64,000 bases of DNA from positions 7,657 through 71,656 of the forward strand of contig CAYFXR010000070.1 in NCBI GenBank assembly GCA_964347155.1. The letters are read 5' to 3'. This DNA comes from an uncultured Nitrospiraceae bacterium (lineage in GTDB: Bacteria > Nitrospirota > Thermodesulfovibrionia > UBA6902). The translations under genes were made by a program, and so were the position numbers. Positions 22,315 to 53,085 of the stretch are shown piece after piece. How positions within the stretch are numbered: the stretch's first letter is position 1; every line of letters starts with the position of its first letter. The notes beneath the pieces were generated by a model. The model worked only from the letters and a program-made list of their open reading frames with translations. It searched no databases and was not told the DNA's origin.

Positions 22315-22492
22315 ACCCAAATAATGCAGACATTGCTCAATAAATTATTTAACTCGATAAATTTATTATTAAATTGTGCATATGGCTTTAAATAAAAGTA
22401 TTAACACTCGATCAATTAATATTGCGTTTAAGGTATCGAAAAATAATTTCTTTCACAAAGCCTGCATTATTTGAAATCCATTGTTTGGGTTT
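22315..22492 (+). mobile_element. MITE-like repeat, copy A (about 178 bp with 15-bp terminal inverted repeats)
   Basis: ACCCAAATAATGCAGACATTGCTCAA...AAGGTATCGAAAAATAATTTCTTTCACAAAGCCTGCATTATTTGAAAT..GGGTT. About 90% identical to copies at 27891, 28226 and 52909, and inverted at 38082. Confidence 0.7.
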
Positions 22493-22745
22493 AAACAAAT
22501 CTTACCACAAGATTGGGGTGATTTGGAACGCAGGCTATCAACCTGTCGATTCAACGAGGCGAAAAACCTGCAGCTATTATTTTATTGTATTGCAGTTAAG
22601 GGTTGGACGGTTTTTTTAACAGTATGTTAAATATAGTACTGAAGCTGCTCTAAAATTGATTGACATACATAGACACTTTGATATACTGGAGATAGATATT
22701 CGCGATTACGTCGATACTCCAGCATGTTTTAAGAAGGAACAGTTC

Positions 22746-23204
22746 ATGACCGCAAGACGAATTTTTCTGATCGCATCGTGTATGATTCTTATTATTGGTT
22801 GTGCTTATTTAAAATCCACACGGAAAACATATTCAAAAAGTTATGCCTTGAATGTTGAAGAACAAGCCAGCATTGGCGCCCCCATGATAACTGTTGAATA
22901 CAACACATATGCCTCAGCTCCGCATAAATATGGACTTGCCGAAGAACAGGACCATTGGCAATCTTTCGATTATCCTTTTTTTAATGATACGGCGAACACC
23001 GAGATCTACACAGGTATCTCAAATTCAGATAATACCATTCACATTTCGTATAAACAATATAAAAAGGACATTAAAAGTCCTACATTTTCTCAAGAATTAA
23101 CCTATGATTTGAGAGATGCAGATATCATCGTGTTTAAGAATTACAAAATTGAAATATTACATACTACGAGTGAATATATCAGGTTTCGGGTTCTTTCAGA
23201 CTGA
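22746..23204 (+). CDS. Hypothetical lipoprotein
   Basis: MTARRIFLIASCMILIIGCAYL is a signal peptide with a lipobox. No recognisable domain. Confidence 0.35.
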   Translation: MTARRIFLIASCMILIIGCAYLKSTRKTYSKSYALNVEEQASIGAPMITVEYNTYASAPHKYGLAEEQDHWQSFDYPFFNDTANTEIYTGISNSDNTIHISYKQYKKDIKSPTFSQELTYDLRDADIIVFKNYKIEILHTTSEYIRFRVLSD

Positions 23205-23373
23205 TTTGCCATCCTGTCACTCAAATAGAATGGTTTGGAAAAAGGGGATTAACCCTGAACCGCTACTGGTACAGGGTTAAGGGGGGGTATACATAAGTAA
23301 TTAATCGTTATTTGGAGCCCCTCTTTGTAGGCGGGGAGCTTCACTATGTTTAGATTTTCTGTTAAACTTTCAC

Positions 23374-24360
23374 ATGTCTGTAATCAAGGTAGAAAGTCTC
23401 GTTAAGCGATTTGATGCTCTCACAGCAGTTAATGATGTTACTTTTGAAGTGGAAGAGGGCACTATCTTTGGTTTTCTTGGCCCCAATGGCGCTGGCAAAA
23501 CGACCACAATAAATATCCTCTGCACATTGCTTTATCCCACATCCGGGAGGGCTTCCATTTCCGGATATGACTGTCGAAAAGAGCCTTCCGAGGTAAGAAA
23601 ATCCATAGGAATTGTTTTTCAGGACACAACTCTTGATAAAGATTTAACCGCATATGAAAATCTGATGTTCCATTCATACCTATATAATGTAAAGCGGGCT
23701 GATATGAAGACACGCATACACGATGCACTTCAATTTGTTGGATTGCATGAAAGAAGAAACGACCTTGTTAAAAAATTTTCAGGCGGGATGAAGAGAAGGC
23801 TTGAGGTTGCAAGGGGCCTTATACACAGGCCACGTGTCCTTTTTCTCGATGAACCGACTCTCGGACTTGATCCCCAGACAAGGGCAAACCTCTGGGAGTT
23901 TATTGTTGAACTTCCGAGGAAGCACAATGTAACAATTTTTATGACAACCCATTATATGGATGAAGCAGAGGTATGTGACAGAATAGCTATTATTGATAAT
24001 GGCAGGATTATTGCCACGGGCTCACCTGATGAACTCAAGAAGACCGTGGGAGGAGATGTGATTTATATAAGGACATCAGATAATAAAAAGGCAAAGCTCG
24101 AGATAGAGAGGATGTTCAATGTGAAAGTTTCTGAACAGGATAGTGAATTATACCTTACTGCTCTCAGGGGAGATGCCTGTATACCTGAAATTATAAGGAC
24201 AATTGGAGAGACGGTTCAGTCGGTCAGGCTCCAGAGACCCACTCTGAATGATGTGTTCCTTAAGCTTACAGGAAAGGAGATCAGGAGAGACGATTTGTCT
24301 TCGGGTGATGTCTTTAAGGAGACAGTTCGTGCATACAGGAGGAGATTTGATCGAGGTTAA
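23374..24360 (+). CDS. ABC transporter ATP-binding protein (ABC-2/DrrA-like)
   Basis: GPNGAGKTT, LSGGMKRRLEVA, LFLDEPTLGLD; 328 aa. Confidence 0.8.
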   Translation: MSVIKVESLVKRFDALTAVNDVTFEVEEGTIFGFLGPNGAGKTTTINILCTLLYPTSGRASISGYDCRKEPSEVRKSIGIVFQDTTLDKDLTAYENLMFHSYLYNVKRADMKTRIHDALQFVGLHERRNDLVKKFSGGMKRRLEVARGLIHRPRVLFLDEPTLGLDPQTRANLWEFIVELPRKHNVTIFMTTHYMDEAEVCDRIAIIDNGRIIATGSPDELKKTVGGDVIYIRTSDNKKAKLEIERMFNVKVSEQDSELYLTALRGDACIPEIIRTIGETVQSVRLQRPTLNDVFLKLTGKEIRRDDLSSGDVFKETVRAYRRRFDRG

Positions 24361-25105
24361 CGCCATATATGTATTAGTGGCGAGGGATTTTAAAAAATTC
24401 GTGCGTGAGAGGAGCAGGCTTGTCTCTACACTCGCAAGGCCTCTTATATGGCTTTTCCTTGTAGGAGGAGGAATGACGAGGCTTGTTTCGCCTAATATAG
24501 GAATATCTTATATGCAGTTTATATTTCCCGGCATACTCGGCATGACAATACTGTTTACTTCCATTTTTTCTTCAATATCCATTATATGGGATAAGGAGTT
24601 TGGTTTGATGAAAGAAATACTCGTGGCACCGGTATCGAGATTTTCAATAGTGATTGGCAAGGCTCTGAGCGGTACATTCATATCTGTTATACAGGCGATT
24701 GTGATATTAATGCTTTTCCCGTTTCTCGGTATAAAGATGGGTTTCATGGCAATACTATCTACCATTGTCATTGCGGTTATTCTTTCATTTTGTATATCAT
24801 CACTGGGTATCGTTATTTCCACGTTTTATGAGAGCTTTGAAAGTTTCAGTGTAATAATGAATTTTATTATTATGCCAATGTTTTTCCTGTCGGGTGCCAT
24901 GTATCCGGTGAACAGGCTTCCCTCGATATTAAAACAATTAACACGATTGAATCCTTTTACTTACGGTATTGACGCCTTAAAGCATACTGTATTGAAAAAA
25001 AGCGAGATAGTGGATTTTTCTATTGTTGCTGATTTAAGTGTTTTAATAATCGCTTCCATTGTATTTGTATTAATCGCTGGTATATTGTTTGAGAGGAAGA
25101 AATAA
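24308..25105 (+). CDS. ABC-2 family permease
   Basis: Six predicted TM segments and an ABC-2 permease-like profile downstream of the ATPase. The start is uncertain; the track ORF begins at 24248 and overlaps the ATPase. Confidence 0.6.
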   Translation: MSLRRQFVHTGGDLIEVNAIYVLVARDFKKFVRERSRLVSTLARPLIWLFLVGGGMTRLVSPNIGISYMQFIFPGILGMTILFTSIFSSISIIWDKEFGLMKEILVAPVSRFSIVIGKALSGTFISVIQAIVILMLFPFLGIKMGFMAILSTIVIAVILSFCISSLGIVISTFYESFESFSVIMNFIIMPMFFLSGAMYPVNRLPSILKQLTRLNPFTYGIDALKHTVLKKSEIVDFSIVADLSVLIIASIVFVLIAGILFERKK

Positions 25106-25114
25106 AAAGTTATT

Positions 25115-25555
25115 CTATTGCTCAAGTTTCTGAGCCTTTACAGCCAGATAGTACGCAATCATCAGGATTATAATGACGAATGCACTTAAACCTATTTCAT
25201 ACAGTTTTTCAACAGGTATGTGCTTCATAAGTGATGTCTGGGCTTCTATGAGAAGGATTCTTCTTACCGCGGCTATTATGCCGATGGCGAGAAAAGGACC
25301 CAAAGAGAATTTCTGTTTCTTTAAAAATCTGATAACTGTCCACAACAGCTCAAGGATAATAAGGGCAAGGAGCACATCATTTACCAGAGCAATAATAGAA
25401 TCACGGGAAGGATATAAAATATTTAGAAATGCATAAAACAGAATAAAACCGCACGCAACAAGCAGTAGTATGGCAGCTATTACATGAAATATTATATCAA
25501 TATTAACAAGAAATTTTCGGAATGTATCTGTTAAATATGTCTTTTTCTGTTCCAT
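25115..25555 (-). CDS. Small four-TM membrane protein, possibly PsiE-like
   Basis: 146-aa hydrophobic protein; topology is reminiscent of PsiE. No strong motif. Confidence 0.3.
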   Translation of the reverse strand: MEQKKTYLTDTFRKFLVNIDIIFHVIAAILLLVACGFILFYAFLNILYPSRDSIIALVNDVLLALIILELLWTVIRFLKKQKFSLGPFLAIGIIAAVRRILLIEAQTSLMKHIPVEKLYEIGLSAFVIIILMIAYYLAVKAQKLEQ

Positions 25556-25676
25556 TCGATACCCTTAACTCGCTATGCTCATTTGAAAAGGAAAAATACA
25601 GGAGAAATTAAATACCATTATCCCAATAGTCAGGAGAAAATGCAATGCATTTTTTACATTTAATTTGTGAAAAAAT

Positions 25677-25922
25677 ATGGTTAATCTAACTTTTTATTAC
25701 AAGGACGGATGCTGGTTGTGCGATCAGGCTGAAGAAATGATAAACGGCCTCAAGGAGAAGTTCGACATCAGGGTTAAGAAAATAGCAATTGACTCAGATG
25801 ATGAGCTTTATGAACTATACAGGTTTGACATTCCCGTCTTGGAATTCAAGGATGGTTCAAATCTTTATGGACGAATCAAGAAAAAAGACCTTCTCAGAAA
25901 GTTCGAAGAAAATAAAGAATAA
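25677..25922 (+). CDS. Glutaredoxin-like thioredoxin-fold protein (DUF836-type)
   Basis: 81 aa. CWLC redox motif at the fold-appropriate position (YYKDGCWLCDQA). Confidence 0.55.
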   Translation: MVNLTFYYKDGCWLCDQAEEMINGLKEKFDIRVKKIAIDSDDELYELYRFDIPVLEFKDGSNLYGRIKKKDLLRKFEENKE

Positions 25923-25963
25923 ATAAAAAAAATTTTTGATATTATAAATAAATGTAATAATGC

Positions 25964-25992
25964 TTGACATCCTCTTTGGTTTTATGTAAAGT
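25964..25992 (+). promoter_or_regulatory. Candidate sigma70-type promoter (TTGACA, 17-nt spacer, TAAAGT)
   Basis: Read directly. Lies about 165 nt upstream of ORF 26158. Confidence 0.3.
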
Positions 25993-26157
25993 TATGCTAC
26001 TTTTCTTTTCTGATTAATAAAAACCTTAATTTTTAATTGCGTTAGTAGATGTTAACAATGTCTTAGGGGAGTATACTCCTTTTCGACAGAAAATTTATAG
26101 GGTTTTATACCCTTGAGAGCGGGTTAGTCACAATAAGCATTTTAAAAATAATGTGAG

Positions 26158-26442
26158 ATGTTAACCCTGACGGAAAAAGAAATACTAACTGGATTAAAGA
26201 AATTGGGAATCAATTCCACTTCTGAACTCGATTCCTGTCTAAGAGAATATAAAGAGTATTATTCTTTGCAAAATTTTAGTGCAGATTTTTCACAAAAATA
26301 TCATGTAGAGATGGAAGCCAACTATTCCAATCACGTTACATCTTCCAACCGGCTTGCTCAAATATGTAACTCTATTTTTTCTGTAATCATTCATTTCTTG
26401 ACATTCTCGAAAGTAAAAACTGCTAAGAGGATAGAGAGATAA
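26158..26442 (+). CDS. Hypothetical protein
   Basis: 94-aa ORF with no recognisable motif. Coding status uncertain. Confidence 0.2.
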   Translation: MLTLTEKEILTGLKKLGINSTSELDSCLREYKEYYSLQNFSADFSQKYHVEMEANYSNHVTSSNRLAQICNSIFSVIIHFLTFSKVKTAKRIER

Positions 26443-26647
26443 TTCATTTTTAAACAATCATAATAATAACTTACCCAAAAAATTTTCACCCGTCATTCCG
26501 TACCTCATATCGAAGGAGGGGGCAGGCTTTAAGCGGAATCCAGGAGTTCAAAGGTGTTGAATTCTTGATTCAAGTAGCGGTTTATACCTTCCGATAAGAT
26601 AAGAAGTTGAGAAATTGATTAAAAAATACAACGTTGCGTATTTAATC

Positions 26648-27877
26648 ATGATAAAAAAAGTCAAAGTTGAACAATTAAAGCCTGGAATGTACATTCACGA
26701 TCTGAATTGTAGCTGGCTGAAGCATCCTTTTTTTGGTAACAGCGTAAAGATTAATGATGAGAAAATCATTGAAAAAATAAATGATTATGGAGTCAGTGAG
26801 GTTTACATTGACACAGATTTGGGACTGGATGTTGTCGATGCTCCGACGGGAGAAGAAGTCGGGCAGGAGATCCAGGAAGAACTGAAAGAAGAAGAACTGA
26901 AAGAAGTTGATGAAAAAAAACCTAAACTCGGTTACGTTGTTTCAATAGATAAAGAGATTATCAATGCAAGAAGGATAAAACAGGAAACAGTACAAACAAT
27001 ACAGAAAATAATGAGCAATGTAAAATTAGGAAAGCAAATCGAAAGGGGTAGGGTAGAATACCTTGTTGATAACATTATTGATTCGATTTTCCGGAATCAG
27101 GATGCACTTATAGGTCTTGGAAGACTCAGAAAGATTAATGATTATGTATACAATCATTCCATGAGTGTCTGTGTACTCATGATTTCTTTTTGCAGACAAC
27201 TTGGCTTTGATGCCGAGTTAATAAGAGAAATTGGAATTGGTGCTATGTTGCATGACATTGGCACGACAAAAGTACATTCACATATCCTGAACAAAAAAAC
27301 TGCATTATCTGAAGAAGAATATGAGAAGATCAAAAAGCATGTGGAGTATGGACATACCTTGCTTGAGGGAACCGAAGGTGTCAGTAATACAACAATTATC
27401 ACTGCTTACCAGCATCATGAAAGATTAGATGGTTCAGGTTATCCGAATGGCTTAAGAGGGGACGAAATAACGCAATATGGACAGGCTATCGCTATTGTGG
27501 ATGTATATGATGCATTAACAACGAAGAGATGTTACAAGCGGAAAATCCCTCCCACTCAGGCATTACGGATGCTCTATGAAAGGAGCGGGGTTCAATTTAA
27601 CAAAAATCTTGTACAACAATTTATTCGTTGTATTGGTATTTATCCTGTGGGCTCAATGGTACGTCTGGAAAGCGGCTTACTTGGTATTGTTATCAGCCAT
27701 AATGAAGGAAGTTTACTCAAGCCGGTTGTACGTGTTATATACGATACAAAAAAAGAGAGCAATATAGTTCCCTATGACGTCGATCTTTCAAAGACATCCG
27801 GAAAAGGTGGTGCGGATAGGATCATAAATTATGAATCACCGGAGAAATGGGAGATACAACCTGAGGTATATTTATAG
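26648..27877 (+). CDS. HD-GYP domain phosphodiesterase with N-terminal DUF3391-like domain (c-di-GMP hydrolase family)
   Basis: MLHDIGT (HD) ... HHERLDGSGYPNGL (GYP). The N-terminus MIKKVKVEQLKPGMYIHDLNCSWLKHPF is paralogous to the gene at 53419. The start is set at the second Met by that alignment. Confidence 0.75.
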   Translation: MIKKVKVEQLKPGMYIHDLNCSWLKHPFFGNSVKINDEKIIEKINDYGVSEVYIDTDLGLDVVDAPTGEEVGQEIQEELKEEELKEVDEKKPKLGYVVSIDKEIINARRIKQETVQTIQKIMSNVKLGKQIERGRVEYLVDNIIDSIFRNQDALIGLGRLRKINDYVYNHSMSVCVLMISFCRQLGFDAELIREIGIGAMLHDIGTTKVHSHILNKKTALSEEEYEKIKKHVEYGHTLLEGTEGVSNTTIITAYQHHERLDGSGYPNGLRGDEITQYGQAIAIVDVYDALTTKRCYKRKIPPTQALRMLYERSGVQFNKNLVQQFIRCIGIYPVGSMVRLESGLLGIVISHNEGSLLKPVVRVIYDTKKESNIVPYDVDLSKTSGKGGADRIINYESPEKWEIQPEVYL

Positions 27878-27890
27878 TTAAACCACATAA

Positions 27891-28058
27891 TGCAGGCTTT
27901 GCTCAATAAATTATTTAACTCGATATATTTATTATTAAATTATGCATATGGCTTTGAATAAAAGTATGCACATTCGATTAATTAATAATGCGTTTAAGGT
28001 ATCGAAAAATAATTTCTTTCACAAAGCCTGCATTATGTGAAATGAATTTTTTGTGTTA
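27891..28058 (+). mobile_element. MITE-like repeat, copy B
   Basis: AACCACATAATGCAGGCTTTGCTCAATAAATTATTTAACTCGATATATTTATT...CACAAAGCCTGCATTATGTGAAATGAATTTTTTGTGTT. Begins 14 nt after the HD-GYP stop. Confidence 0.7.
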
Positions 28059-28225
28059 ATCGTTGTTGCATTTTTAAAGATTTTGAAGGTGTCTGTGCCA
28101 CTTATTTAAATAGCTAACTGCATTTTTTGGGTTGACTAATTCAGAATCCTCATATTTTTTTCAACTTTTGTTCATATTTCCTTCGTAATTCTCTGCTATT
28201 TTTTTATTCAGTAATTAACATTATT

Positions 28226-28402
28226 AACCCAAATAATGCAGACATTGCTCAAGAAATTATTTAACTCGATATATTTATTATTAAATTGTGCATATGGCGT
28301 TGAATAAAAGTATGCACATTCGATTAATTAATAATGCGTCTAAGGTATTGAAAAATAATTTCTTTCACAACGCCTGCATTATTTGAAATGCATTTTTTGG
28401 GT
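28226..28402 (+). mobile_element. MITE-like repeat, copy C (tandem with copy B, about 170 bp apart)
   Basis: AACCCAAATAATGCAGACATTGCTCAAGAAATTATTTAACTCG...CACAACGCCTGCATTATTTGAAATGCATTTTTTGGGTT. Confidence 0.7.
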
Positions 28403-28423
28403 TAACTGATTCTAGTCTGACTA

Positions 28424-28450
28424 TTGACAATGCATGGATTGTGTTATACA
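28424..28450 (+). promoter_or_regulatory. Candidate promoter (TTGACA, 15-16 nt spacer, TATACA) for the Met/Gly-rich protein gene
   Basis: Read directly. Sits just right of MITE copy C and about 105 nt upstream of the ATG at 28557, which has an AAGGAGG RBS. Confidence 0.3.
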
Positions 28451-28556
28451 AGGGAATTATAGGAAAATAAGGAGTTAATAGAGTTGAAGGGAGGTGGTAT
28501 GCTGTTGTTATGAATGCTGAAAAACAAGAAAAATATGTTAAGGAGGTATTGGTAAT

Positions 28557-29034
28557 GAAACGAATATTGATAATAACTTTAATAATAGCAGGCTTAACGG
28601 CTGCTTACAGCTTTGCTGAGATGCAAAGAGGCATGATGGGCACAAAGGGTCAGGAAAAGACTAGTGAGACACCTTATAGTGGTGGTTATTATCCATGCCC
28701 TCAAATGATGGGACAGGGTATGATGGGTTATGGCGGTTACGGAATGATGGGACCAGGTATGATGGGTTATGGTATGATGGGTCATCACAGGATGGGTGGT
28801 ATGATGGGTCCTGGCATGATGGGCTATGGTGATTACGGTACAGGGAAATATGATCCTGAGGCATATCAAAAATATCTGGATGACACAGTGGACTTAAGGA
28901 AAAAACTTCACAACAGGAAATTTGACTATTTTGAGGCGCGCAGGAACCCTGATACAAAGCGCGAGACCCTCTTGAAAATTGAAAAAGAAATTCATGATAT
29001 TCAGTGGGAAATATACGAAAAGGCCCCGAGATAA
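28557..29034 (+). CDS. Periplasmic Gly/Met-rich protein with a C-terminal Spy/CpxP/ZraP-like helical region (putative metal-binding)
   Basis: Signal peptide MKRILIITLIIAGLTAAYSFA. Repeats MMGQGMMGYGGYGMMGPGMMGYGMMGHHRMGGMMGPGMMGYG, then a predicted helical tail. AAGGAGG RBS 8 nt upstream. The track ORF starts at 28510. Confidence 0.5.
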
Positions 29035-32102: not shown

Positions 32103-32473
32103 TTAAATAATGCAGACATTATAGTTGAAAAAAATAACTATCAGAAGTTGTGAAGCTTCCCGATTAATCCCCTCAGCTTAGAGGAATTATAAAGTTCATA
32201 TTTTTGAAGATCAGATGAGAGCAATACCTGAGGAGGCGTCATTGGGTTTATTCGGCATCCAGTCTCCTTTGCGACATTATTTTGGACGGCCGGGTTTTTC
32301 GAGTTTGCTTTTTATTTTTTTTCAAAACTTAGTGATATAATCTTTTTATGGAAAAGACTAATGATACTAAATATAACGAAGAAAAAGAATTTATGGTAAA
32401 TTCATAATGTGTTCGCTATTAATTGATACACTGAATTCAGGATACATCCTCTCCCCTAAGTGGAGAGGGAGAT

Positions 32474-35161: not shown

Positions 35162-36781
35162 GTGCTTAAACTGCTTTTAAAAGATATTGCAATAAGAGAA
35201 AATTTGTCTGTCCAGAGTAATACCTCTTTAAGAAATTCAATTAAGTTAATGAATATTAACAGAAAAGGTGTGGTTGTTGTGCTGGAGGATAAACGACTGG
35301 CAGGAATCTTAACTGAAAGGGATATTATTAAAATATTATATGAGGGCATTAACCTGGATGAAAGTGTAGATAAATATGCCAAGAAAACTTTGGTTTCAAC
35401 CAAAGGGTGCAGGACAGTAGGTTATGCTTTGAATTTGACAATTGATAATAAAATAAGAAGGGTGATAGTCACAGATGATTCAAATAATTTTATCGGTCTT
35501 GTCACACAGCAGGATTTACTTAAATATGTTGAAGAGGATTTTTATCGCCTAAGCATTAAGGTCAAGCATATTTTGAAAGATGCTGGAAGTCTGATCAGTG
35601 TCTCCTCAGATGATCCATTAATTAACGCACTCAAAAAGATGATAGAAAATAAAATTAGTGCTGTTGTAGTAATGGAAGATAGAGCAGTTGTAGGAATCAT
35701 AACAGAGAAAGATATTTTAAAACTGGCTGGTGACAATATTTCCCTTGAAAATATGGTAGACAAATATATGTCCAGTCCTGTTGAAACTGTTTGCAACGAC
35801 TCACCCCTTGTTGAAATTGTAGAAGTAATGAATTACAAGAACATCAGAAGAGTCTTAATCGTTGATCAGGAGGGACGGGAGATTGGTATACTTACCATAA
35901 GAGATGTGATTAAAAATTTAGAGGGAGATTACAGTAAATTTCTTGAAAGGAAGCTTAGAAATGCCAGGGAGATTTTGAACTTGCTCCCTGAGATGCTTAT
36001 AGAGATAGCTGACACCGGAAAAGAGCAGTTAATAGTCTGGGCAAACAGCAAAGTTATTGAAAAATTTGGCAAAGAAATTCTGGATAAATCTGTAGCAGAC
36101 TTTCTCCAAAGGAAAAATTGGAATAAAATCTATGATACCTTGAATAAATTAACCAAAGTAGAAAATATAAGGCTCAAGAAAGACAATAGAATTTATGAAC
36201 TTTCCGGATTTTTATTAAGAATTGATGGAAGAATAGAAAAAAGAAGATACCAGCTTATAATAAGAGATATTACGGAAGAAGTCAGACTATCTACGTTCGA
36301 CCCCCTCACTAATATTTATAACAGAAGGTTCATAAATGGATTCATGATACAAGAAATAGAAAGAAGCAAGCGGTCTTACAAAAAATTTTCTATTGTAATA
36401 TGTGATATAGACGATTTTAAAAAAATCAATGATATACACGGGCACTTATCAGGAGACATTGTACTTAAATCTGTTTCCCAGCTTATAACAAATACTATCA
36501 GGCATCTGGATGTTGTGGGAAGGTATGGAGGAGATGAGTTTATGATAATTTTGCCAGAGGCATCCGGCCAAACAGCTTCTCATATTGTAGATAGAATCAG
36601 ATTTAATATCGGTAGCTTGGAAATACCGGTTCTCAAAAACAAAAAAGTAAAAGTTACTGCCAGTTTCGGTATCGCGACTTTTCCAGAAGATGGGATATCC
36701 CCGGATGACTTACTTATTGCAAGCGATGAAAGGTTATATAAAACTAAAAGCTCCGGGAAAAATAAAGTTTTTTACAATTAA
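35162..36781 (+). CDS. Diguanylate cyclase (GGDEF) with tandem CBS-pair sensory domains
   Basis: Two CBS pairs in the N-terminal half. C-terminal GGDEF domain with RYGGDEFMIILPE active-site motif; 539 aa. Confidence 0.7.
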   Translation: MLKLLLKDIAIRENLSVQSNTSLRNSIKLMNINRKGVVVVLEDKRLAGILTERDIIKILYEGINLDESVDKYAKKTLVSTKGCRTVGYALNLTIDNKIRRVIVTDDSNNFIGLVTQQDLLKYVEEDFYRLSIKVKHILKDAGSLISVSSDDPLINALKKMIENKISAVVVMEDRAVVGIITEKDILKLAGDNISLENMVDKYMSSPVETVCNDSPLVEIVEVMNYKNIRRVLIVDQEGREIGILTIRDVIKNLEGDYSKFLERKLRNAREILNLLPEMLIEIADTGKEQLIVWANSKVIEKFGKEILDKSVADFLQRKNWNKIYDTLNKLTKVENIRLKKDNRIYELSGFLLRIDGRIEKRRYQLIIRDITEEVRLSTFDPLTNIYNRRFINGFMIQEIERSKRSYKKFSIVICDIDDFKKINDIHGHLSGDIVLKSVSQLITNTIRHLDVVGRYGGDEFMIILPEASGQTASHIVDRIRFNIGSLEIPVLKNKKVKVTASFGIATFPEDGISPDDLLIASDERLYKTKSSGKNKVFYN

Positions 36782-36805
36782 CCCACATAATGCATTATCT
36801 GGGTT
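36781..36805. repeat. TIR-only mini-palindrome of the MITE family (ACCCACATAATGCATTATCTGGGTT) at the GGDEF gene 3' end
   Basis: Read directly. Left and right MITE termini abutted. Forms a hairpin immediately after the stop codon. Confidence 0.6.
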
Positions 36806-36865: not shown

Positions 36866-36990
36866 TGTCTTGATAATAAAAGGATTCAAGGATTCGAAGA
36901 TTCAAGGGGTCAAGGATTATTTAATAAAATTAATTCCTTCACTTGAACCCCTGGACCCTTGACCACTCGAACCCTTGAGAGAAAAATTCG
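36866..36990. terminator. Large imperfect palindrome between convergent genes (candidate bidirectional terminator)
   Basis: GGATTCAAGGATTCGAAGATTCAAGGGGTCAAGGATT ... CCTTCACTTGAACCCCTGGACCCTTGACCACTCGAACCCTTGAG lies between the GGDEF gene (+) and the cytochrome gene (-). Confidence 0.35.
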
Positions 36991-37040: not shown

Positions 37041-38057
37041 TTAATGTCCGAATAGATTTGGTATGATAAAAGTCTTATATTTTGTTACGAGACTTTTAAT
37101 ATTCAAATACTGTAAATCTTTGGTCTTTTTATCATCAAAACCGAGTGCTTGAAAATCCAATATGCCGTCTGGAGAATGACATTCATTGCAGGCGAAACTG
37201 ATCTCTTTTCTTGCAATATCTCTGTGGAAGTAGCTTAGCTGTTCTTTTCTCTCTTCAGGACTAATGTTTTTTTCTTTGTCAAGATACTCTCTGGCTTTTT
37301 CATTGTCCTTTGTATTTATCAATAATATCCCCCCCTTTTTTCCGGTTTTAAAAACGGCAATTCTTGATATTACATACTCTGTCTTTTGTGTTTCATCTGA
37401 ATCGTCTTTTTGAGATGAAAATATCTTTAACATCCTGGTTATCAAACTTTCAGTTTCCCCGTTTTCTTCGTTTTCACGCTTTTGGTGTGTTCCGTAAGGC
37501 TCACCGGTAAATTCGAACTCTTCAGGTTCTTTCCAATCATATGCCAGGTATTTCAGTTTATCCTTTTTAAGATGGCATACTTCGCAGAGCATGAAACCTG
37601 TATGCATGTTTACAAGAGCCCTGACCTTATTATTTTCACTGTGAGGGTATAAAGGATGGCAGACCCGGCAGGATGATTTGTCATTGAGGAGGGTGATGGC
37701 AAATCTTTCATCCTTATGGAAGTTGACAAAATATGCCGGATCAATGGTATCTATTTTTTCCTTGTCTTCAAGATGGCATTCGGTAGTGCAATCAACATCT
37801 GTTACGTTTGTATGTGGAAACTGAACTATCTGTGGATGGCATTGCTTGCAGTCTGTTTTGCCGTGTTTGGATGAGATGTGCTTTTCTTCGTCAATATGGA
37901 GTACTTTAAATTTATCGGGTTTTTCAAACTTTACGAGACCGGGATACCGATGACAGGTAAGGCATCCTCCCTTATCTACGGCAAGGCATTGAGGAGGAGA
38001 TTTTAAGACAAAATATGAAATTGTGATAAATAATATCAAAAAAACATGCTTTTTCAT
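37041..38057 (-). CDS. Multihaem c-type cytochrome (secreted)
   Basis: Six CxxCH/CxxxCH motifs (CLTCH, CKQCH, CTTECH, CRVCH, CEVCH, CNECH). Signal peptide MKKHVFLILFITISYFVL. The start is set at the internal Met. Confidence 0.75.
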   Translation of the reverse strand: MKKHVFLILFITISYFVLKSPPQCLAVDKGGCLTCHRYPGLVKFEKPDKFKVLHIDEEKHISSKHGKTDCKQCHPQIVQFPHTNVTDVDCTTECHLEDKEKIDTIDPAYFVNFHKDERFAITLLNDKSSCRVCHPLYPHSENNKVRALVNMHTGFMLCEVCHLKKDKLKYLAYDWKEPEEFEFTGEPYGTHQKRENEENGETESLITRMLKIFSSQKDDSDETQKTEYVISRIAVFKTGKKGGILLINTKDNEKAREYLDKEKNISPEERKEQLSYFHRDIARKEISFACNECHSPDGILDFQALGFDDKKTKDLQYLNIKSLVTKYKTFIIPNLFGH

Positions 38058-38081
38058 TTGTAAACACAGAAAGCACATTTA

Positions 38082-38239
38082 CAACAATGCAGGCTTTGTG
38101 AAAAAATTTATTTTTCGATACCTTAACATAATTTTAATCCATAGAGCGGTATATATGTTTGTGCAAAGACATTTGCATAATTTAATAAAAAAATCATAGA
38201 GTTAAATAGATTTTTGAACAATGTCTGTATTATTTGGGT
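38082..38239 (-). mobile_element. MITE-like repeat, copy D (inverted orientation), immediately upstream of the cytochrome gene
   Basis: The reverse complement reads CAAATAATACAGACATTGTTCAAAAATCTATTTAACTCTATGATTTTT...GGTATCGAAAAATAAATTTTTTCACAAAGCCTGCATTGTTGT. Confidence 0.6.
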
Positions 38240-38325
38240 AAAAAGTTTTTTCTTCAAGTAAGTAGTACTCTTAGAGCAAAATCAGATTTTTTTTATTCTG
38301 TTCACAAGGTTAATTATACATTATA

Positions 38326-38883: not shown

Positions 38884-39279
38884 ATGTAGATATTAACGGA
38901 AATAGACTGGAAGGGTTTTCTGTGCTGTTGATTGGATAATTGTTTTATTCCAGACTTTTCTGGAAATATCTTCCTTATTAAAGAATTTTTATAAGCTTAA
39001 CATAGGGAGTGAAAATAGTCTATTGATAAAAAGGTAAAAAGTTTGAAGCCCGATATAGGGCTGCATTAAGGTATCGAGATGATTTTTCCCGCCTGCTCCG
39101 CATAACCCGGCAGCAAAAGTATCGCTCAATTTAGATTTTAATATCTTGACAATATGGCAGTTGATAATACTTTTTTGCTCCTTTAAACTAAAACACATAC
39201 ATAACCCAATTCCAGTTGGGAGCATACAACTCAGTATTTTTTCTATCTGGAACCAGGATCAATGTGGAGGTCTGCGATT

Positions 39280-46518: not shown

Positions 46519-46545
46519 AACCCAAAAAATGCATTATTTGGGTTA
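46519..46545. repeat. TIR-only mini-palindrome of the MITE family (AACCCAAAAAATGCATTATTTGGGTT) at the 3' end of the ABC ATPase gene
   Basis: Read directly. A near-perfect 26-nt palindrome 13 nt downstream of the minus-strand stop at 46558. Confidence 0.6.
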
Positions 46546-46557
46546 AACTCAAGTGTT

Positions 46558-47625
46558 CTAACAGGTTATCCTTTGCCCGTTGTAAAAGAAATGTACTCCT
46601 GTGTCGTCTAATGCAATTGAAATTTCCTGGCCTGTTTTTCCCTGAAAACCTGAAGGTGCCTTGGCAATCAGTCTTATATCATCGATTTTTATATAAAGAA
46701 TGGTTTCGGGGCCGAGATGTTCGATTAATTCCAGATGCCCCCTGATAGGCCCGTGTCCCGGTGTTAAAGACTCGGATCTGATGCCCATGGTAATATCTTG
46801 ATTCGCATATTTCTTTAGCTCTTCCCTTAATCCAAGGCGGATCGTTAGTTTGTCTGATTTGAAAAACATTTCTTTTTCATTGACATCTAAAAGCCCTTTG
46901 ACGAGATTTATCTGGGGGGTGCCAATGAAGGTTGCTACGAAAAGATTCGACGGGGTGTGGTACATTTCATCCGGGGTACCGATCTGTTGTATCACGCCCT
47001 GATCAAGCAACACTATTTTTTCTCCGAGTGTCATTGCCTCTACCTGGTCATGAGTAACATATAGGGTAGTGGCTTTTAATTTTTGATGGAGTCGTGCGAG
47101 TTCCACCCTCATGCTGCTTCGCAGTTTTGCATCAAGATTGGACAGAGGTTCGTCAAAGAGAAACAATTTCGGGTTTCTGACAATTGCCCTTCCAATTGCA
47201 ACCCTCTGCCTTTGACCGCCTGACAATTCTTTTGGTTTCCTGTTCAATAATTCCTCAATACCTAAAAGAACTGCTGTTTCTTTTACCTTCTTATCCATCT
47301 CTTGTTTTGGCCTCTTCCGCATTTTTAGAGAAAAAGCCATGTTTTCATATACATTGAGATGAGGATAAAGGGCATAGCTCTGAAAAACCATTGCAATATC
47401 TCTTTCCTTTGGTGTGAGATTGCTTACTTCCCTGTCACCTATGAAGATTTCCCCATCATCCTGCTGCTCGAGCCCAGCAATTAACCTGAGTACCGTTGTT
47501 TTCCCGCACCCTGACGGGCCAAGGAGTATACAGAATTCACCTTCCTTGACTTCAAAGGAAATAGCATTGATAACCTTCGTAGTACCGAAGGATTTTTGTA
47601 GATTATCTATTTTCAGATTTGCCAT
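46558..47625 (-). CDS. ABC transporter ATP-binding protein, MalK/UgpC/PotA type with C-terminal TOBE-like domain
   Basis: GPSGCGKTT, LSGGQRQRVAIGRA, LFLFDEPLSNLD; 355 aa. No cognate permease adjacent. Confidence 0.75.
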   Translation of the reverse strand: MANLKIDNLQKSFGTTKVINAISFEVKEGEFCILLGPSGCGKTTVLRLIAGLEQQDDGEIFIGDREVSNLTPKERDIAMVFQSYALYPHLNVYENMAFSLKMRKRPKQEMDKKVKETAVLLGIEELLNRKPKELSGGQRQRVAIGRAIVRNPKLFLFDEPLSNLDAKLRSSMRVELARLHQKLKATTLYVTHDQVEAMTLGEKIVLLDQGVIQQIGTPDEMYHTPSNLFVATFIGTPQINLVKGLLDVNEKEMFFKSDKLTIRLGLREELKKYANQDITMGIRSESLTPGHGPIRGHLELIEHLGPETILYIKIDDIRLIAKAPSGFQGKTGQEISIALDDTGVHFFYNGQRITC

Positions 47626-47724
47626 GATTAGATTTTTTACTGAAGAAATTATACCATTATGCGGTTTTTTGAAGGGGGATTTTTACAATGATCAGACAAA
47701 TGATGAAGTTTGCATCCTTCCTGT

Positions 47725-48951
47725 TTAAGACAGGGGAGAAGAGTGGGTAAGCGACCGTCTTATCAAGTCGTTTTCGCAAACTCCCTGATGTATGGGCAAC
47801 AAAACAACTTCTTCATTCCTTCCTGACTTTATGGGATTTCCTTTTGTACTGAACATTTCCTTAACATCAAACGTTTGATTTTCAAGCCCTGCGGTGAGGA
47901 ATTCTATTTTATCGCCGATTTTGAGATTGTTCCTTAATGCGATGACGGCCTTTCCGTTGTTGACTGATTGAACAACTCCAACAAGCTCATGACTCATTCT
48001 GTATACGTACTCCTCGTCATGATTGTAGCCGCTATCAGGATGTGTTCCGAAAAACATACCCGTGGTATAACCCCTGCTGGAAAACATTGACAGCTCTTGA
48101 AGCCATTGTTTTTTCGCCCTGTAAGGCCTGTGCCTGAGGATGTCAATAGCCTCCCTGTATGTCTTGACTACTCCTGCTACATAATTGATGCCTTTCATCC
48201 TTCCTTCGATCTTGAAACTGTTAACCCCTGCATCGGCAAGTTTGTCAACGTGCTCAATCATGCACAGGTCTCTTGAACTCAAAATATAGGTTCCCCTGTC
48301 GTTTTCATATACAGGGAGGTACTCTCCCGGCCGCTTTTCTTCAGTCAATGCATAATTCCACCTGCATGAATTTGTACATTCTCCCTGGTTTGCCGATCTG
48401 TTTGCCAGAAAACTGCTCATATAGCATCTTCCCGAATAAGAGATGCATATGGCGCCGTGCACAAAGCACTCAAGTTCAATGGATATAGTATCTCGTATAT
48501 CCTTTATCTCATTAATAGTCAGCTCTCTTGACAGGACTAATCTCTTTGCACCCATCCTCTCCCAGAATTTTGCTGACTCGTAATTAGTGATATTTGCCTG
48601 TGTACTTATATGAACAGGAATTTCAGGGGCAATTTTGGATGCTATTTCAAATACCCCGATATCTGAAATTATCAATGAGTCCGGCGATATTTTTTTAAGG
48701 TATGACAGATGATCTTTAACGAGGGAAATATCTTTATTATGAGGAAAAATATTTACAGTGATATAGCATTTTCTGCCTGTCTGGTGAATAAGAATTGCAG
48801 CATTTTCAAGCTCGTCTGTAGTAAAATTATCAGCTTTTGCCCTGAGGCTGAATTCAGAAGACCCCATATAAACAGCATCAGCACCGTAGTGGAGTGCAGT
48901 CCTGAGCTTTTCTAGGTTCCCTGCAGGAGCAAGGAGTTCAGGCAATTTCAT
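47725..48951 (-). CDS. Peptidase U32 family protein
   Basis: MKLPELLAPAGNLEKLRTALHYGADAVYMG N-terminus is characteristic of U32/PrtC-like proteins; 408 aa. Confidence 0.7.
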   Translation of the reverse strand: MKLPELLAPAGNLEKLRTALHYGADAVYMGSSEFSLRAKADNFTTDELENAAILIHQTGRKCYITVNIFPHNKDISLVKDHLSYLKKISPDSLIISDIGVFEIASKIAPEIPVHISTQANITNYESAKFWERMGAKRLVLSRELTINEIKDIRDTISIELECFVHGAICISYSGRCYMSSFLANRSANQGECTNSCRWNYALTEEKRPGEYLPVYENDRGTYILSSRDLCMIEHVDKLADAGVNSFKIEGRMKGINYVAGVVKTYREAIDILRHRPYRAKKQWLQELSMFSSRGYTTGMFFGTHPDSGYNHDEEYVYRMSHELVGVVQSVNNGKAVIALRNNLKIGDKIEFLTAGLENQTFDVKEMFSTKGNPIKSGRNEEVVLLPIHQGVCENDLIRRSLTHSSPLS

Positions 48952-48996
48952 ATGAAATTATTTTAACATGAATGATTACTTACGGGGTGTGTTTTA

Positions 48997-50304
48997 TCAT
49001 TCGCTTATCATACCGGCGTCTGTAAGCGATGACTTTAATGCCTGTACAATCGCTGGATCAAACTGGGTGCTGGCATTTGCCTCGATTTCACTTAAGGCCA
49101 TCTCGTAATCGAGTTGTGTGCTGTTCGAATTTTTATTTGTCAGCATGTCAAACTTATCCGCTACAGAAAGAATACGGGCACAAAGGGGAATTTCATCTCC
49201 TTTTATTGCCATGGGATAGCCGGTACCGTCAAATCTTTCATGATGATGCAGGATAATGTCTGCCGAATCGTTCCAGAGAGAAATAGATTTTATCAAATCA
49301 TATCCAAGTATTGAATGCTGCATAATTTTTTCTTTTTTTCGCTGATCTCTTGGATCAATTTTCAGCATACCAATATCGTGTAAGAGACAGGCATAATAAA
49401 GCCTTTTTAATTCAATCTCGGATAAATTCAGTTGTTTTCCGATATAGTTGGCGTAGTTGGCCACTCTTCGTGAATGTCCTTTCTTGTTCTGTATGTAATC
49501 CTGAGCGCCGACAAGGATTTCAGTTATATGAATAAAATCACTCAGTTGTTTTTCTTTTGATCTGTTTTGCGCAATAGATATACTTGCCTGATCAGCAATA
49601 CTGTGAAGTAATGCTTCTTCTTGTTTGGTAAACACTCCCTGTTTTTTATTCCGAAGTTCAATAGCACCGATGATTTCGTTGGCATATACAAGCGGGACGC
49701 AGATAACCGATTTCGTTTTAAGGCCTGTTTCATTGTCAAAATCAGAATCATATCGTGTATCTTTTGCTGCATTGTTGATAAGGGCCGGTTTTCCGTTTTT
49801 TACCACCCAGCCGGCGATCCCTTCACCAGATTTTAGAGTCCGATTGTTCATTTTTTGAGAGTTTTTTCCAAAGTTAACCTTAAACTGGAGGTTGTCTTTG
49901 TCATCGTTGAGAAGGAGGGACCCTGATTCGGCAGCAATGAGGTTCATAGCTGATTCCATGATTTTTTTCAAGAGAATATCAAGATATAACGTTTCTCGAA
50001 ACTGTTTTGTAATCCCGAAGAGGCTGTTTAATTTTATATTAAGATCCTGTGCAGATACGATGGATGAATTAGTGGCCTTTGTTGAGAGGATTAAACCGAG
50101 AACTGACACGGCAACAGCAAGCACAAGTAATATTCCGACATTTACCGGGATCTTCGAAATGTCACCCTCTGTGACGTACGGATAAATATATTTGATTGAA
50201 AAATAAACAAGCAGGGCTAACGGAATGATGGATGCAATAAAATGTGAGATCTTAACGTAACGGCGAATGTTATCAAAGAAATCTTTACCTTCAAGACCGT
50301 GCAT
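48997..50304 (-). CDS. Membrane-anchored GAF plus HD-GYP domain protein (c-di-GMP phosphodiesterase family)
   Basis: N-terminal TM helices, central GAF-like region, LLHDIGMLKI (HD) and HHHERFDGTGYPMAI (GYP); 435 aa. Confidence 0.65.
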   Translation of the reverse strand: MHGLEGKDFFDNIRRYVKISHFIASIIPLALLVYFSIKYIYPYVTEGDISKIPVNVGILLVLAVAVSVLGLILSTKATNSSIVSAQDLNIKLNSLFGITKQFRETLYLDILLKKIMESAMNLIAAESGSLLLNDDKDNLQFKVNFGKNSQKMNNRTLKSGEGIAGWVVKNGKPALINNAAKDTRYDSDFDNETGLKTKSVICVPLVYANEIIGAIELRNKKQGVFTKQEEALLHSIADQASISIAQNRSKEKQLSDFIHITEILVGAQDYIQNKKGHSRRVANYANYIGKQLNLSEIELKRLYYACLLHDIGMLKIDPRDQRKKEKIMQHSILGYDLIKSISLWNDSADIILHHHERFDGTGYPMAIKGDEIPLCARILSVADKFDMLTNKNSNSTQLDYEMALSEIEANASTQFDPAIVQALKSSLTDAGMISE

Positions 50305-50649
50305 TACCTGGTTCCTCAGTAAATATATATTCTCAGTAACCTATGATGCAAAATTACTATTTAAAATTACTATCTTAATATCGACTATAATCGTTGGAAA
50401 CTTTAGGATTACAGGAGTTCTCCCAATTTTTTAGCTGTATCAACATCTACCTTATCTTAGGAATCTTAGCAAACCCATATGATTTCCCCCTTTGGAAAAG
50501 GGGGATCAAGGGGGATTTTATAATGATTACATCTACAAATCCCCACTTACCCCTTATAGGGGCGTTGCCCCAACGGTGAAAAGCCGCGTTGCGGCCTCGC
50601 CGCTTTACGCGGGGCTTTACGCCCCCCCTTTACTAAAGGGGGGAAATAT

Positions 50650-50740
50650 AAATTGGTATATCAATTAATATTGCCCTTAAGGTACCGACAAATAATTTCT
50701 TTCACAAAGCCTGCATTGTTTGAGGTGCATTTTTTGGGTT
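50650..50740 (+). repeat. Partial MITE-like copy (right half only)
   Basis: ...CTTAAGGTACCGACAAATAATTTCTTTCACAAAGCCTGCATTGTTTGAGGTGCATTTTTTGGGTT. Lies upstream of the GAF-HD-GYP gene. Confidence 0.55.
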
Positions 50741-51120
50741 CAGGACGGGGTGTGCAGTAATGCTTACCAGATCAAGGAAAGAAAAGCGTCGAGGTCTGTT
50801 TGAAGACGGTTAAACTTGCACCAGATTACCATACACTCCTCTGAACGATAGCAATAACCGTCTTTAATTACTACATGAATACTTACACCCGTCCTTTCAC
50901 GGTACGGGCATGGTATGTGAAGCTTTCCCGTTTCTATTGCATAGACTTTCTGCATGAGCGGGTCTTTCATATTTATATTTTATTCTTATTCGTATACCTT
51001 TGTAAATTGGTTTTGTTTGGTATAATTATCATGAGCAAATAGTGAATTTTTTTGAAAAAAAAATGTAGACTATATGTAACTGTAAATAAAGGAGATAATC
51101 TTTTGAACAATAGTGTCCCC

Positions 51121-52404
51121 ATGTATGACAATACACCTGCTATTGATGAAAAAACCCAAAGGCATTTAAAACAAATAGACAAAGCAGATATTATCATAGG
51201 AATTCCGAGTTACAACAATGCGGAATCTATTGGCCGTGTGATAAAGGCTGCGGAGCTTGGTCTTGCAAAATATTTTTCCAGGTATAAGGGAGTGATTATC
51301 ATCTCTGAAGGGGGATCTGTTGAAGAAACCCAAAGAGCTGTTGATGTTTTAAAAGATAAACACTATTTTGAAGATTCATTCATATCTAAGCCCCCATTTG
51401 AAACAGAGATACTCGTTACAAAATACCTTGGGGCTTCAGGAAAGGGAACAGCAATAAAGGCAATATTTGAGGCAGCGCAAATCCTGGATATGAAGGCAGG
51501 CTGTATGCTTGACGCAGATTTGAGGAGCATCTCACCGGCATGGGTAGAGCTGCTCATTGCTCCTATCATCTTGAAAAATTTTGAATTTGTAGCCCCTTAT
51601 TACAGTCGCCACAAATATGATGGAACCATTACGAATATGATCGCTTTTCCTTTAACCTGGGCTTTATACGGCAGACGTGTCCGACAGCCAATCGGTGGTG
51701 ACTTTGGATTTTCTTTGGAACTTGTAAAAAGCCTTCTTTCAAAAAATGTATGGGAAACAGACATCGCAAGATTTGGTATTGATATATGGATGACAACAGT
51801 TGCTATATGTGAGGATTTTAAAATCTGCCAGTCCTTTCTCGGTGCAAAAATTCATGATATAAAAGATCCTGGCAAACATCTGAGTCCAATGTTTAAGCAG
51901 GTTGTTGGTACAATTTTCAATTTAATGGACATATATCAGGAAAAATGGTTTCGAGTGAAAGGAAGCCGTCCTACTGCTATCTTTGGATTTGAATCTGAAT
52001 TTGCTCCGAAACCGATAGATGTGGATATTGAGAATTTGATTAATAAGTTCAAAGAAAGTGTCCCAAGGTATTTGCATGTCTGGGAAAGAGTACTTGAGAC
52101 TGAAAATTGTCAGAAGATACAGGAAGTGGCAAATATGGAGGGCAATCTGTTTGAGTTGCCTGTCGAATTATGGATTAAGTCATTATATGATTTTGCCGTG
52201 GCCTATGATAAGAAATCTGACGGGATTAACGCTCATGAAATAATTGAGGCATTGGTTCCGATTTATTATGCTCAGACCGCGTCTTTTGTAAACAAAACAC
52301 TGAATCTGGATTCCCATCAGACAGAAGAAGTGATAAACCAACAATGTACCGTATTTGAAAAATTAAAATCGTATCTGGTTAAAAGTTGGGCCTCTCATGA
52401 GTAA
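51121..52404 (+). CDS. Glycosyltransferase (GT-A fold, family 2-like); possibly a glycosyl-glycerate-type synthase
   Basis: IIIGIPSYNNAESIGRVI N-terminal GT-A motif and DAD (MLDADL) motif. The start is set at MYDNTP; the track ORF starts at 51052. Specific function is not supported. Confidence 0.45.
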   Translation: MYDNTPAIDEKTQRHLKQIDKADIIIGIPSYNNAESIGRVIKAAELGLAKYFSRYKGVIIISEGGSVEETQRAVDVLKDKHYFEDSFISKPPFETEILVTKYLGASGKGTAIKAIFEAAQILDMKAGCMLDADLRSISPAWVELLIAPIILKNFEFVAPYYSRHKYDGTITNMIAFPLTWALYGRRVRQPIGGDFGFSLELVKSLLSKNVWETDIARFGIDIWMTTVAICEDFKICQSFLGAKIHDIKDPGKHLSPMFKQVVGTIFNLMDIYQEKWFRVKGSRPTAIFGFESEFAPKPIDVDIENLINKFKESVPRYLHVWERVLETENCQKIQEVANMEGNLFELPVELWIKSLYDFAVAYDKKSDGINAHEIIEALVPIYYAQTASFVNKTLNLDSHQTEEVINQQCTVFEKLKSYLVKSWASHE

Positions 52405-52419
52405 AAGGGGGTAAAAAAA

Positions 52420-52782
52420 GTGAGGAAAAAAATTCTGGTTGTAGATGATGAAAAGAATATTCGGTTATTGCTTCAGGAAGAACTGACAGACGAAGGATAT
52501 GATGTTATTATGGCGCACAGCGGCGAAGCCGCGCTGGACATGATAAAAGAGGAAAACCCCGACCTTGTAACGCTCGATATAAAAATGCCGGGTGAAGACG
52601 GCCTGAGTATATTACGGAAGATACGGGAGATAAACTACGATTTGCCTGTTATTATCTGCTCAGCATACAGTGTATTTAAAAGTGATTTTTCGGCAGTCGC
52701 AGCAGACCATTATGTAGTAAAGTCTTCTGACTTTGATGAGCTTAAGAATAAGATCAAGGAAATACTCGCTTACGAGTTTTGA
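52420..52782 (+). CDS. Stand-alone response-regulator receiver (CheY-like)
   Basis: ILVVDDEKNIRLLL, phospho-acceptor context LVTLDIKMPGEDG, and a conserved Lys region; 120 aa. GTG start. Confidence 0.7.
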   Translation: MRKKILVVDDEKNIRLLLQEELTDEGYDVIMAHSGEAALDMIKEENPDLVTLDIKMPGEDGLSILRKIREINYDLPVIICSAYSVFKSDFSAVAADHYVVKSSDFDELKNKIKEILAYEF

Positions 52783-52908
52783 CAACTTTTTAAAACCCTC
52801 TTTCCCCCACGTTTAATCCAAACAATGCATTTTTTTAAACTTGTCAAAATATCAGGCATTGTCCCAAGTTTGTATGATGGAAATAACGATGTTTAAGTTT
52901 TTTACTTT

Positions 52909-53085
52909 ACCCAAATAATGCAGACATTGCTCAAGAAATTATTTAACTCGATAAAATTATTATTAAATTATGCATATATCTTGGAACAAAAATATTCACC
53001 TTAGATTGGTTGGAATTGCGTCTAAGGTATCGAAAAATAATTTCTTTCACAAGGCCTGCATTATTTGAAATGCATTTTTTGGGTT
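52909..53085 (+). mobile_element. MITE-like repeat, copy E, upstream of the second DUF3391-HD-GYP gene
   Basis: ACCCAAATAATGCAGACATTGCTCAAGAAATTATTTAACTCGATAAAATTATT...CACAAGGCCTGCATTATTTGAAATGCATTTTTTGGGTT. Flanked by about 28-bp direct repeats (..AATGCATTTTTTTAAACTTGTCAAAATAT at 52823-52852 and 53352-53379). Confidence 0.7.

Follow-up and report, generated by a model that had tools for sequence, protein, structure and literature searches.

The stretch of DNA analysed here (the window), 64,000 nucleotides of a contig from an uncultured Nitrospiraceae bacterium, carries between its genes a family of short AT-rich repeats, several of which border genes for cyclic di-GMP (c-di-GMP) signalling proteins or the gene for a multihaem cytochrome. 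The family was recovered in three ways, by repeat finding, by MAFFT alignment and by an nhmmer profile built from the five full copies, and comprises in the window five full copies with a body of ~174 bp that are 77–93% identical, together with one 3' half copy; these six family sites and two solo palindromes lie inside 31 kb. The repeat finder returned a 182-nt direct family of four members, with 85–93% identity to the reference copy, and inverted matches to the fifth copy on the minus strand, while in nhmmer the full copies have E-values between 1e-46 and 1e-56. The window contains 7 occurrences of an 18-nt core motif, for which shuffles give an expectation of 0.33, and two subfamilies coexist there. 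An earlier description made from the letters alone, which we call the sequence-only reading, had proposed a repeat of about 178 bp in at least five full copies and a half copy, interpreted as a non-autonomous miniature inverted-repeat element; the copies were confirmed by all three methods, and the six intervals it listed for an all-against-all alignment do align end to end. We conclude that the repeats are very probably a family of non-autonomous DNA transposons, or MITEs (short for miniature inverted-repeat transposable elements), of Thermodesulfovibrionia-type Nitrospirota.

Coordinates given here delimit the body that begins with CCC and ends with GGG, leave out the duplicated 4-mers that flank it, and were set by base-by-base reading. 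Copy 1 (22316–22489, plus strand, E = 8.7e-54) lies between a radical-SAM gene on the minus strand and an open reading frame (ORF) of 182 aa on the plus strand, and is flanked by TTTAA at 22311–22315 and 22490–22494. Copy 2 (27882–28055, plus strand) begins right behind the TAG stop codon of an HD-GYP gene at 26615–27877, has TTAA at 27878–27881 and 28056–28059, and has degenerate termini (ACC...GTG). Copy 3 (28228–28401, plus strand, E = 5.6e-56), with TTAA at 28224–28227 and 28402–28405, is found 105 nt upstream of an ORF at 28510–29034. Copy 4 (38065–38238, E = 2.5e-46) is the one on the minus strand, flanked by TTTA at 38239–38242 and 38061–38064, and is the most diverged, with 77–78% identity to its nearest relatives. 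Copy 5 (52910–53083, plus strand, E = 5.7e-55), with TTTA at 52906–52909 and 53084–53087, precedes a second HD-GYP gene (53419–54621) by ~335 nt. The 3' half copy occupies 50659–50738 on the plus strand (profile positions 99–181, E = 1.6e-18), close to the interval of 50650–50740 proposed earlier. The intervals first drawn around the full copies hold real copies, but with starts at 27891 and 38082 copies 2 and 4 were cut short at the end, and the degenerate pieces reported at 32105–32120 and 39060–39100 do not reach significance (E = 7.5 and 2.8 in nhmmer). Every window copy is intergenic, as had been claimed.

The architecture of the element is that of two inverted arms surrounding a variable centre. 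The terminal inverted repeat is best taken as contiguous, AACCCAAATAATGCA facing TGCATTTTTTGGGTT with one mismatch; since the right terminus is preceded, 3 nt upstream, by another, internal TGCATTATTTG, no 13-nt insertion is needed to explain the end. The sequence-only reading gave a 15-bp terminal inverted repeat; the termini span 14–15 bp and continue into arms that form an imperfect inverted repeat of ~33 nt with 85–88% complementarity. The body is AT-rich. A single copy folds at -45.8 kcal/mol, compared with -28.6 kcal/mol for shuffles (z = -4.5), and the nhmmer profile finds every copy on the opposite strand as well. The element thus emerges as a long, imperfect palindrome and more than a pair of short ends.

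The flanks of the copies also support the MITE reading. We compared the 4 nt to the left with the 4 nt to the right of the CCC/GGG ends in 20 copies and permuted the right flanks among copies 20000 times. The two 4-mers are equal in 14 of the 20 copies against 6.4 expected, a count that none of the 20000 permutations reached, and the duplicated 4-mers are mostly TTAA, with TTTA, TCTA and TAAA also represented. Because TTAA is palindromic, it looks alike as a direct repeat and as an extension of the inverted repeat, and the ten copies with another left 4-mer were therefore tested apart; six of these match (TTTA four times, TCTA and TAAA once each) against 1.4 expected (P = 1e-4), and all six are direct repeats. 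The duplication at copy 1, TTTAA, is 5 bp long. Models with a duplication of TA or of 3 bp explain fewer copies than the 4-bp model, and the extra bases on the left and right of the copies (0+2, 1+1, 2+0) match a 4-bp duplication and not TA. The search for target-site duplications at the copy boundaries, proposed earlier as a check, returned matching 4-mers in most of the copies compared.

The family is dispersed well beyond the window. A pattern of 24 nt from the 3' arm, with 20 of its bases specified, was used to scan public collections and matches two species-representative genomes, an uncultured Nitrospiraceae metagenome-assembled genome (MAG) and a Thermodesulfovibrionales MAG, as well as 32 metagenome contigs. 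Three of the matching contigs carry the window's own loci (97.5–100% identity) and a few others are duplicates of one another; after duplicate loci are removed, ~20 further distinct insertion sites are left, and the genes beside them are mutually unrelated, their products including IF2, SerRS, an aldolase, IspF, a penicillin-binding protein (PBP), a histidine kinase and an adenylate cyclase. Some ten of the metagenome contigs (~10) terminate inside a copy, as is expected because repeats break assemblies. Copy 5 is 97% identical to a copy on contig L011 and 95% identical to one on contig L004, both at unrelated loci, and such near-identity between dispersed copies points to recent activity of the family.

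Dispersal of this kind bears on the suggestion that the repeats are remnants of a local segmental duplication or of gene conversion rather than a mobile element. Every copy in the window lies within 31 kb, two paralogous HD-GYP genes lie next to copies, the right terminus together with 9 nt of its flank is duplicated at 28116–28142 and 28386–28412, and copy 5 with its surroundings is enclosed by a direct repeat of 21 nt, all of which could be expected of duplicated DNA. In all copies similarity nevertheless breaks off abruptly at the CCC/GGG termini, the ~20 unrelated loci lie on other contigs and also in other genomes, and the copies stand in different positions relative to the two HD-GYP paralogues, downstream of one and upstream of the other. 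We consider local duplication an extremely unlikely explanation.

Members of the family range in size from 22 bp, with the two termini alone, to ~420 bp. A variant of ~290 bp on contig L001 has a different centre of ~200 nt between the family ends and TTAA on both sides; copies on L002, L010 and L029 carry GC-rich hairpin inserts, which in L010 (about 1520–1545 and 5300–5330) and L029 (about 150–175) are the short GC-rich palindromes TTAATCCGCCTGAGGCGGAT and CCTGCCTGCCGGCAGGCAGG inside otherwise standard copies; and L011 also holds a short derivative of ~60 bp. On L004 a standard copy with TTTA on both sides is nested in an outer element whose own terminal inverted repeat, AACCCAAATAATGCAG / CTGCATTATTTGGGTT, is perfect over 16 bp. 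Common termini with differing contents are what a set of substrates for one transposase would be expected to show. Apparent internal-deletion alleles in two pairs of contigs, L006 against L016 and L028 against L034, are scaffold gaps (NN) and not biology.

Several related pieces in the window had not been listed in the sequence-only reading. Between copies 2 and 3, described there as a tandem pair, both copies are present but the tandem label does not hold: copy 2 is followed by an appendix (28065–28133, plus strand) made of an arm of a second palindromic family (28065–28099) and a spare right terminus, CTGCATTTTTTGGGTT (28118–28133), and only then by copy 3. The appendix has its homologue on L004, in the right-hand part of the outer element of the nest there. 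A degenerate terminus-like piece, AATCCAAACAATGCA, lies at 52815–52829 on the plus strand, upstream of copy 5. In the half copy, GC-rich hairpin repeats stand in place of the 5' half, and the same arrangement is found in metagenome contigs L018 and L026. The two solo palindromes are each 22 bp long and lie in convergent spacers: CCCACATAATGCATTATCTGGG (36782–36803), with TTAA on its left and TTAT on its right, starts at the stop codon of a GGDEF gene, and CCCAAAAAATGCATTATTTGGG (46521–46542), with TTAA on both sides, lies just past a stop codon. In both, the left terminus is joined to the right one at a common TGCA, a structure that occurred zero times in 30 shuffles. If a full copy underwent a deletion between its two ATGCA repeats, the sequence left behind would be exactly the reverse complement of the solo at 46521–46542.

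The position of the solos just past stop codons in convergent spacers is reminiscent of repetitive extragenic palindromic (REP) sequences, and raises the question whether the family is a REP-like palindrome, or one of the bacterial interspersed mosaic element (BIME) kind, spread by a Y1 transposase of the REP-associated tyrosine transposase (RAYT) type or by recombination instead of by a DDE transposase. A gene for a 324-aa protein with the Y1_Tnp domain (PF01797) does exist beside a VapBC pair on contig L035 (983–1957), which comes from a relative and is syntenic with part of the window. Against this stand the variable 4-bp direct duplications that flank the copies; Y1 transposases are not known to make such duplications. 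A tblastn search with the L035 protein found no match in the window or in 34 repeat-bearing loci, L035 itself holds no copy of the family, and the solo at 46521–46542 is accounted for as an exact deletion product of a full copy. This explanation is accordingly rated very unlikely.

At 174 bp the element is too small to hold a transposase gene, in agreement with the earlier claim that none of the copies encodes one. A Pfam scan of the window covered greedily selected ORFs of at least 100 aa, except for a few that were read or judged otherwise, and among the ORFs scanned there was no match to a transposase family; four had no Pfam match of any kind. The ORFs beside half copies encode a DnaJ-PilZ protein, a radical SAM protein, IspF and similar products, and no transposases. 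Viral contigs scanned with the 5' and 3' patterns gave no match, nor did plasmids searched by blastn with one copy. A motif scan of the window and all loci did pair two termini at 14194 and 15386, which bracket what is, judged from its sequence, a transporter-like membrane protein, and the pair was treated as a chance occurrence.

Comparison with relatives shows syntenic or nearby DNA that is free of the family. The cytochrome beside copy 4 has a homologue of 74% identity on contig L035, which is syntenic with the window from 29.7 to 42.8 kb, and in L035 the spacer between the FKBP gene and the cytochrome gene contains no family copy. The alignment of L035 with the window is good up to TTTTTA at the left junction and then collapses, and the window is without the ~190 nt of native upstream region that L035 has before the cytochrome. 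No family member was found in the ~55 kb that contigs L035, L036 and L037 provide together, L035 and L036 being syntenic with the window and L037 sharing only the cytochrome and a metal ATPase. The insertions are, as far as these alignments indicate, not ancestral.

The family is small, AT-rich, intergenic and multicopy, has terminal inverted repeats and direct repeats, lacks a transposase gene and folds into a stable stem-loop, which are the structural properties by which MITEs are defined (PMC10969869, PMC4133298, PMC3184786), and its members lie within the size limit of about 500 bp (PMC10969869). The same combination is known from Correia (CREE) in Neisseria, ERIC in Enterobacteriaceae and Nezha in cyanobacteria, which also come in size variants and nested clusters (PMC10969869, PMC3184786, PMC4133298). 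The present family has no sequence similarity to any of these; Correia and ERIC duplicate TA, whereas here the duplication is of 4 bp and of the TTAA type, and Nezha has a cognate insertion sequence (IS), ISNpu3, whereas no IS partner was identified here. Chunjie of Geobacter uraniireducens is close in form, with a length of 178–235 bp, AT-rich sequence and many intergenic and partial copies, and its host is, like the host here, an anaerobe rich in multihaem cytochromes (PMC3184786, PMC10969869), but its terminal inverted repeats are 21 bp and its direct repeats 9 bp long (PMC3184786), in contrast to the 14–15 bp termini and 4-bp duplication of this family. The repeats described here add a new MITE family from a phylum that has been little studied. 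The element is of an ordinary kind, notable only for ends and a 4-bp target duplication like those of piggyBac/IS1380 transposons, and leaves the current understanding of MITEs unchanged. The miniature-element interpretation made from the sequence alone is thereby upheld, on the strength of the target duplications, the unrelated insertion sites, the near-identical dispersed copies, the derivatives, the absence from relatives and the lack of a transposase match.

For such an element mobilisation would occur in trans. In the mechanism we propose, a transposase encoded elsewhere in the genome would bind the arms and termini and move the element into 4-bp sites rich in T/A, preferably TTAA but at times also TTTA, TCTA or TAAA; insertion would duplicate the target 4-mer, and internal deletion, internal insertion and nesting would give rise to the size variants. 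A transposase of the IS1380/piggyBac type is proposed as the most likely mobiliser because of the CCC...GGG ends and the 4-bp (once 5-bp) duplication of the TTAA type, and we offer it as a lead drawn from this signature. IS1380 elements, as catalogued in ISfinder, have CC ends and duplications of 4–5 bp, and the family carries the signature of CC(C)...(G)GG termini with a 4–5 bp TTAA-type duplication. The eukaryotic piggyBac duplicates TTAA, with rare variants such as TAAA and CTAA that parallel the occasional one-base variants here, and its terminal repeats start with CCC, IS1380 being its prokaryotic outgroup (PMC10813416). No transposase was found for the present family, which is a putative member of this group. 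In the literature searched, no MITE family derived from IS1380 is described and no paper links MITEs with Nitrospirae or Thermodesulfovibrio, and a 2024 review of MITEs makes no mention of Nitrospirota, IS1380 or TTAA.

Several observations weigh against the MITE interpretation and against the proposed mobiliser. The flanking 4-mers differ in six of the 20 copies compared, and the palindromic TTAA could partly belong to the element itself. The invariance of the 3' arm among the loci is partly built in, the loci having been retrieved by a pattern inside that arm, and the GTDB representatives scanned do not include the source genome. Among the features by which MITEs are recognised, the cognate IS and a clean empty site are both missing. 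No autonomous partner with the family termini was found in the window, the 37 loci, the viral contigs or the plasmids; many accepted MITE families are likewise without a known partner. At the cytochrome, comparison with L035 resembles a replacement of ~190 nt more than a simple insertion, and on the right L035 does not show a cleanly empty site. No clean pair of filled and empty sites was found among close strains, the strain-level contigs L005, L018 and L026 carrying the same insertions. The IS1380 traits invoked above, CC ends and 4–5 bp duplications, are general background.

The orientation of the copies is the observation that a purely selfish element would not predict. By hand count, the 3' end is turned towards a gene's start at 24 of the 30 distinct sites and, where the neighbouring genes stand in tandem, in 12 of 14 cases, with binomial P-values of 0.0007 and 0.006 against a null of 0.5 that rise to 0.03–0.18 under fairer nulls; we treat it as a lead and not as a finding. 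Could the repeats then be a multicopy small-RNA gene or a cis-regulatory leader, a structured RNA equipped with a promoter and a terminator of its own and controlling the gene downstream? Besides the orientation, the folding of single copies beyond that of shuffles would fit such a role, as would the copy that abuts a start codon, and some known MITEs do yield small RNAs (PMC10969869). The weakening of the bias under fairer nulls counts the other way, as do the functionally unrelated downstream genes, and target duplications and nesting are unexpected for an RNA gene. Nor do the copies behave as a conserved RNA. Rfam gave no match, either over the whole window at the gathering threshold or for one locus at E <= 1; RNAalifold on 23 copies found only 19 pairs, all in the arms, with a consensus energy of -7.4 kcal/mol and a covariation term of -0.41; and 12 of the 19 pairs never vary, while two change on both sides, a count reached in 41 of 500 shuffles. 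The centre of the element is not conserved. A lineage-wide structured RNA with covarying pairs, named in the sequence-only reading as the outcome that would speak against a mobile repeat, therefore does not emerge from an empty Rfam search and negligible covariation.

The promoter and terminator proposed earlier find no support in the scans either. The right end had been likened to a hairpin followed by a U-tract, but the hairpin and T-run are broken in copies 1, 2 and 4, three of the five full copies in the window, and the end is not called terminator-like. Internal stretches had likewise been taken as promoter-like; the matches inside copies are weak (mostly 9/12, at best 10/12) and lie on the opposite strand, the scans found no promoter-like match on the element's own strand, and two scanned regions, in which four full copies and the half copy lie, have no more promoter-like matches than shuffles do. 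We therefore regard an RNA gene or leader as an unlikely origin for the family. As a mobile element, the family may still have been put to use: the gene-facing 3' ends, together with the copy that replaced the native upstream region of the cytochrome, hint at co-option as 5' leaders. The broader proposal, that this is the first described group of bacterial MITEs with a piggyBac-type signature, mobilised by an IS1380-like or truly piggyBac-like transposase active in Thermodesulfovibrionia and with copies perhaps co-opted as 5' leaders, is put forward as speculation that we ourselves hold to be doubtful.

The cytochrome beside copy 4 (gene at 37041–38057) has five CxxCH motifs and one CxxxCH; the 3' end of that copy points at the gene, whose ATG (38057) lies 3 nt past the copy's duplicated TTTA, with no obvious Shine-Dalgarno sequence; the location of elements directly upstream of the cytochrome gene and, at the distance given above for copy 5, of an HD-GYP gene had been recognised correctly from the outset. 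The two HD-GYP genes at 26615–27877 and 53419–54621 are DUF3391-HD-GYP paralogues with 71–74% nucleotide identity over matched stretches, and each borders one copy; a third HD-GYP gene, with a GAF domain (48997–50304), and a CBS-GGDEF gene (35162–36781) also border family members. With three HD-GYP genes and one GGDEF gene as neighbours in the window a link to a c-di-GMP regulon was considered, but it was rejected since the neighbours at other sites are unrelated. Since they adjoin genes of c-di-GMP signalling and a cytochrome gene, the insertions could alter the expression of these neighbours. The family explains a fair share of the AT-rich repetitive DNA between genes in these uncultured Nitrospirota and probably also the assembly breaks at the contig ends noted above. 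Its TTAA/CCC signature could guide a search for an active transposase of the IS1380/piggyBac type in a phylum whose mobile elements are barely described.

Other repeats occur in the window and on the metagenome contigs. The second palindromic family mentioned above has a member of ~156 bp at 53173–53328, with arms GGCACAGAYACCTTCAAAATCTTTAAAAATGCAAC, and is also represented by one arm at 28065–28099 (minus strand) and on L004 (1868–1902); its centre contains TGGATGCCATTTTGCA (about 53216–53231) and its mirror image, with a sigma-54-like GG-N10-GC spacing judged by eye, ~190 nt upstream of the HD-GYP gene at 53419. At 50486–50640 lie the GC-rich hairpin repeats found in place of the half copy's 5' half (CCCCCTTTGGAAAAGGGGGATCAAGGGGGATTT and its neighbours), and similar units are present on other Nitrospirota contigs, on L001 (2097–2129), on L002 (1963–2037, inside the copy there) and on L021 (361–393). 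An integron attC site was rejected by inspection, for the ends of the elements do not match RYYYAAC/GTTRRRY and there are no cassettes. A long hairpin of GGATTCAAGG-like units lies at 36882–36980, in the convergent spacer between the GGDEF and cytochrome genes, and related units are present on L009 (1709–1789). Finally, the perfect 21-nt direct repeat TTTTTAAACTTGTCAAAATAT, at 52832–52852 and 53359–53379, has its two occurrences 527 bp apart, brackets the nest of repeats upstream of the HD-GYP gene at 53419, and may mark a duplication or a larger insertion.

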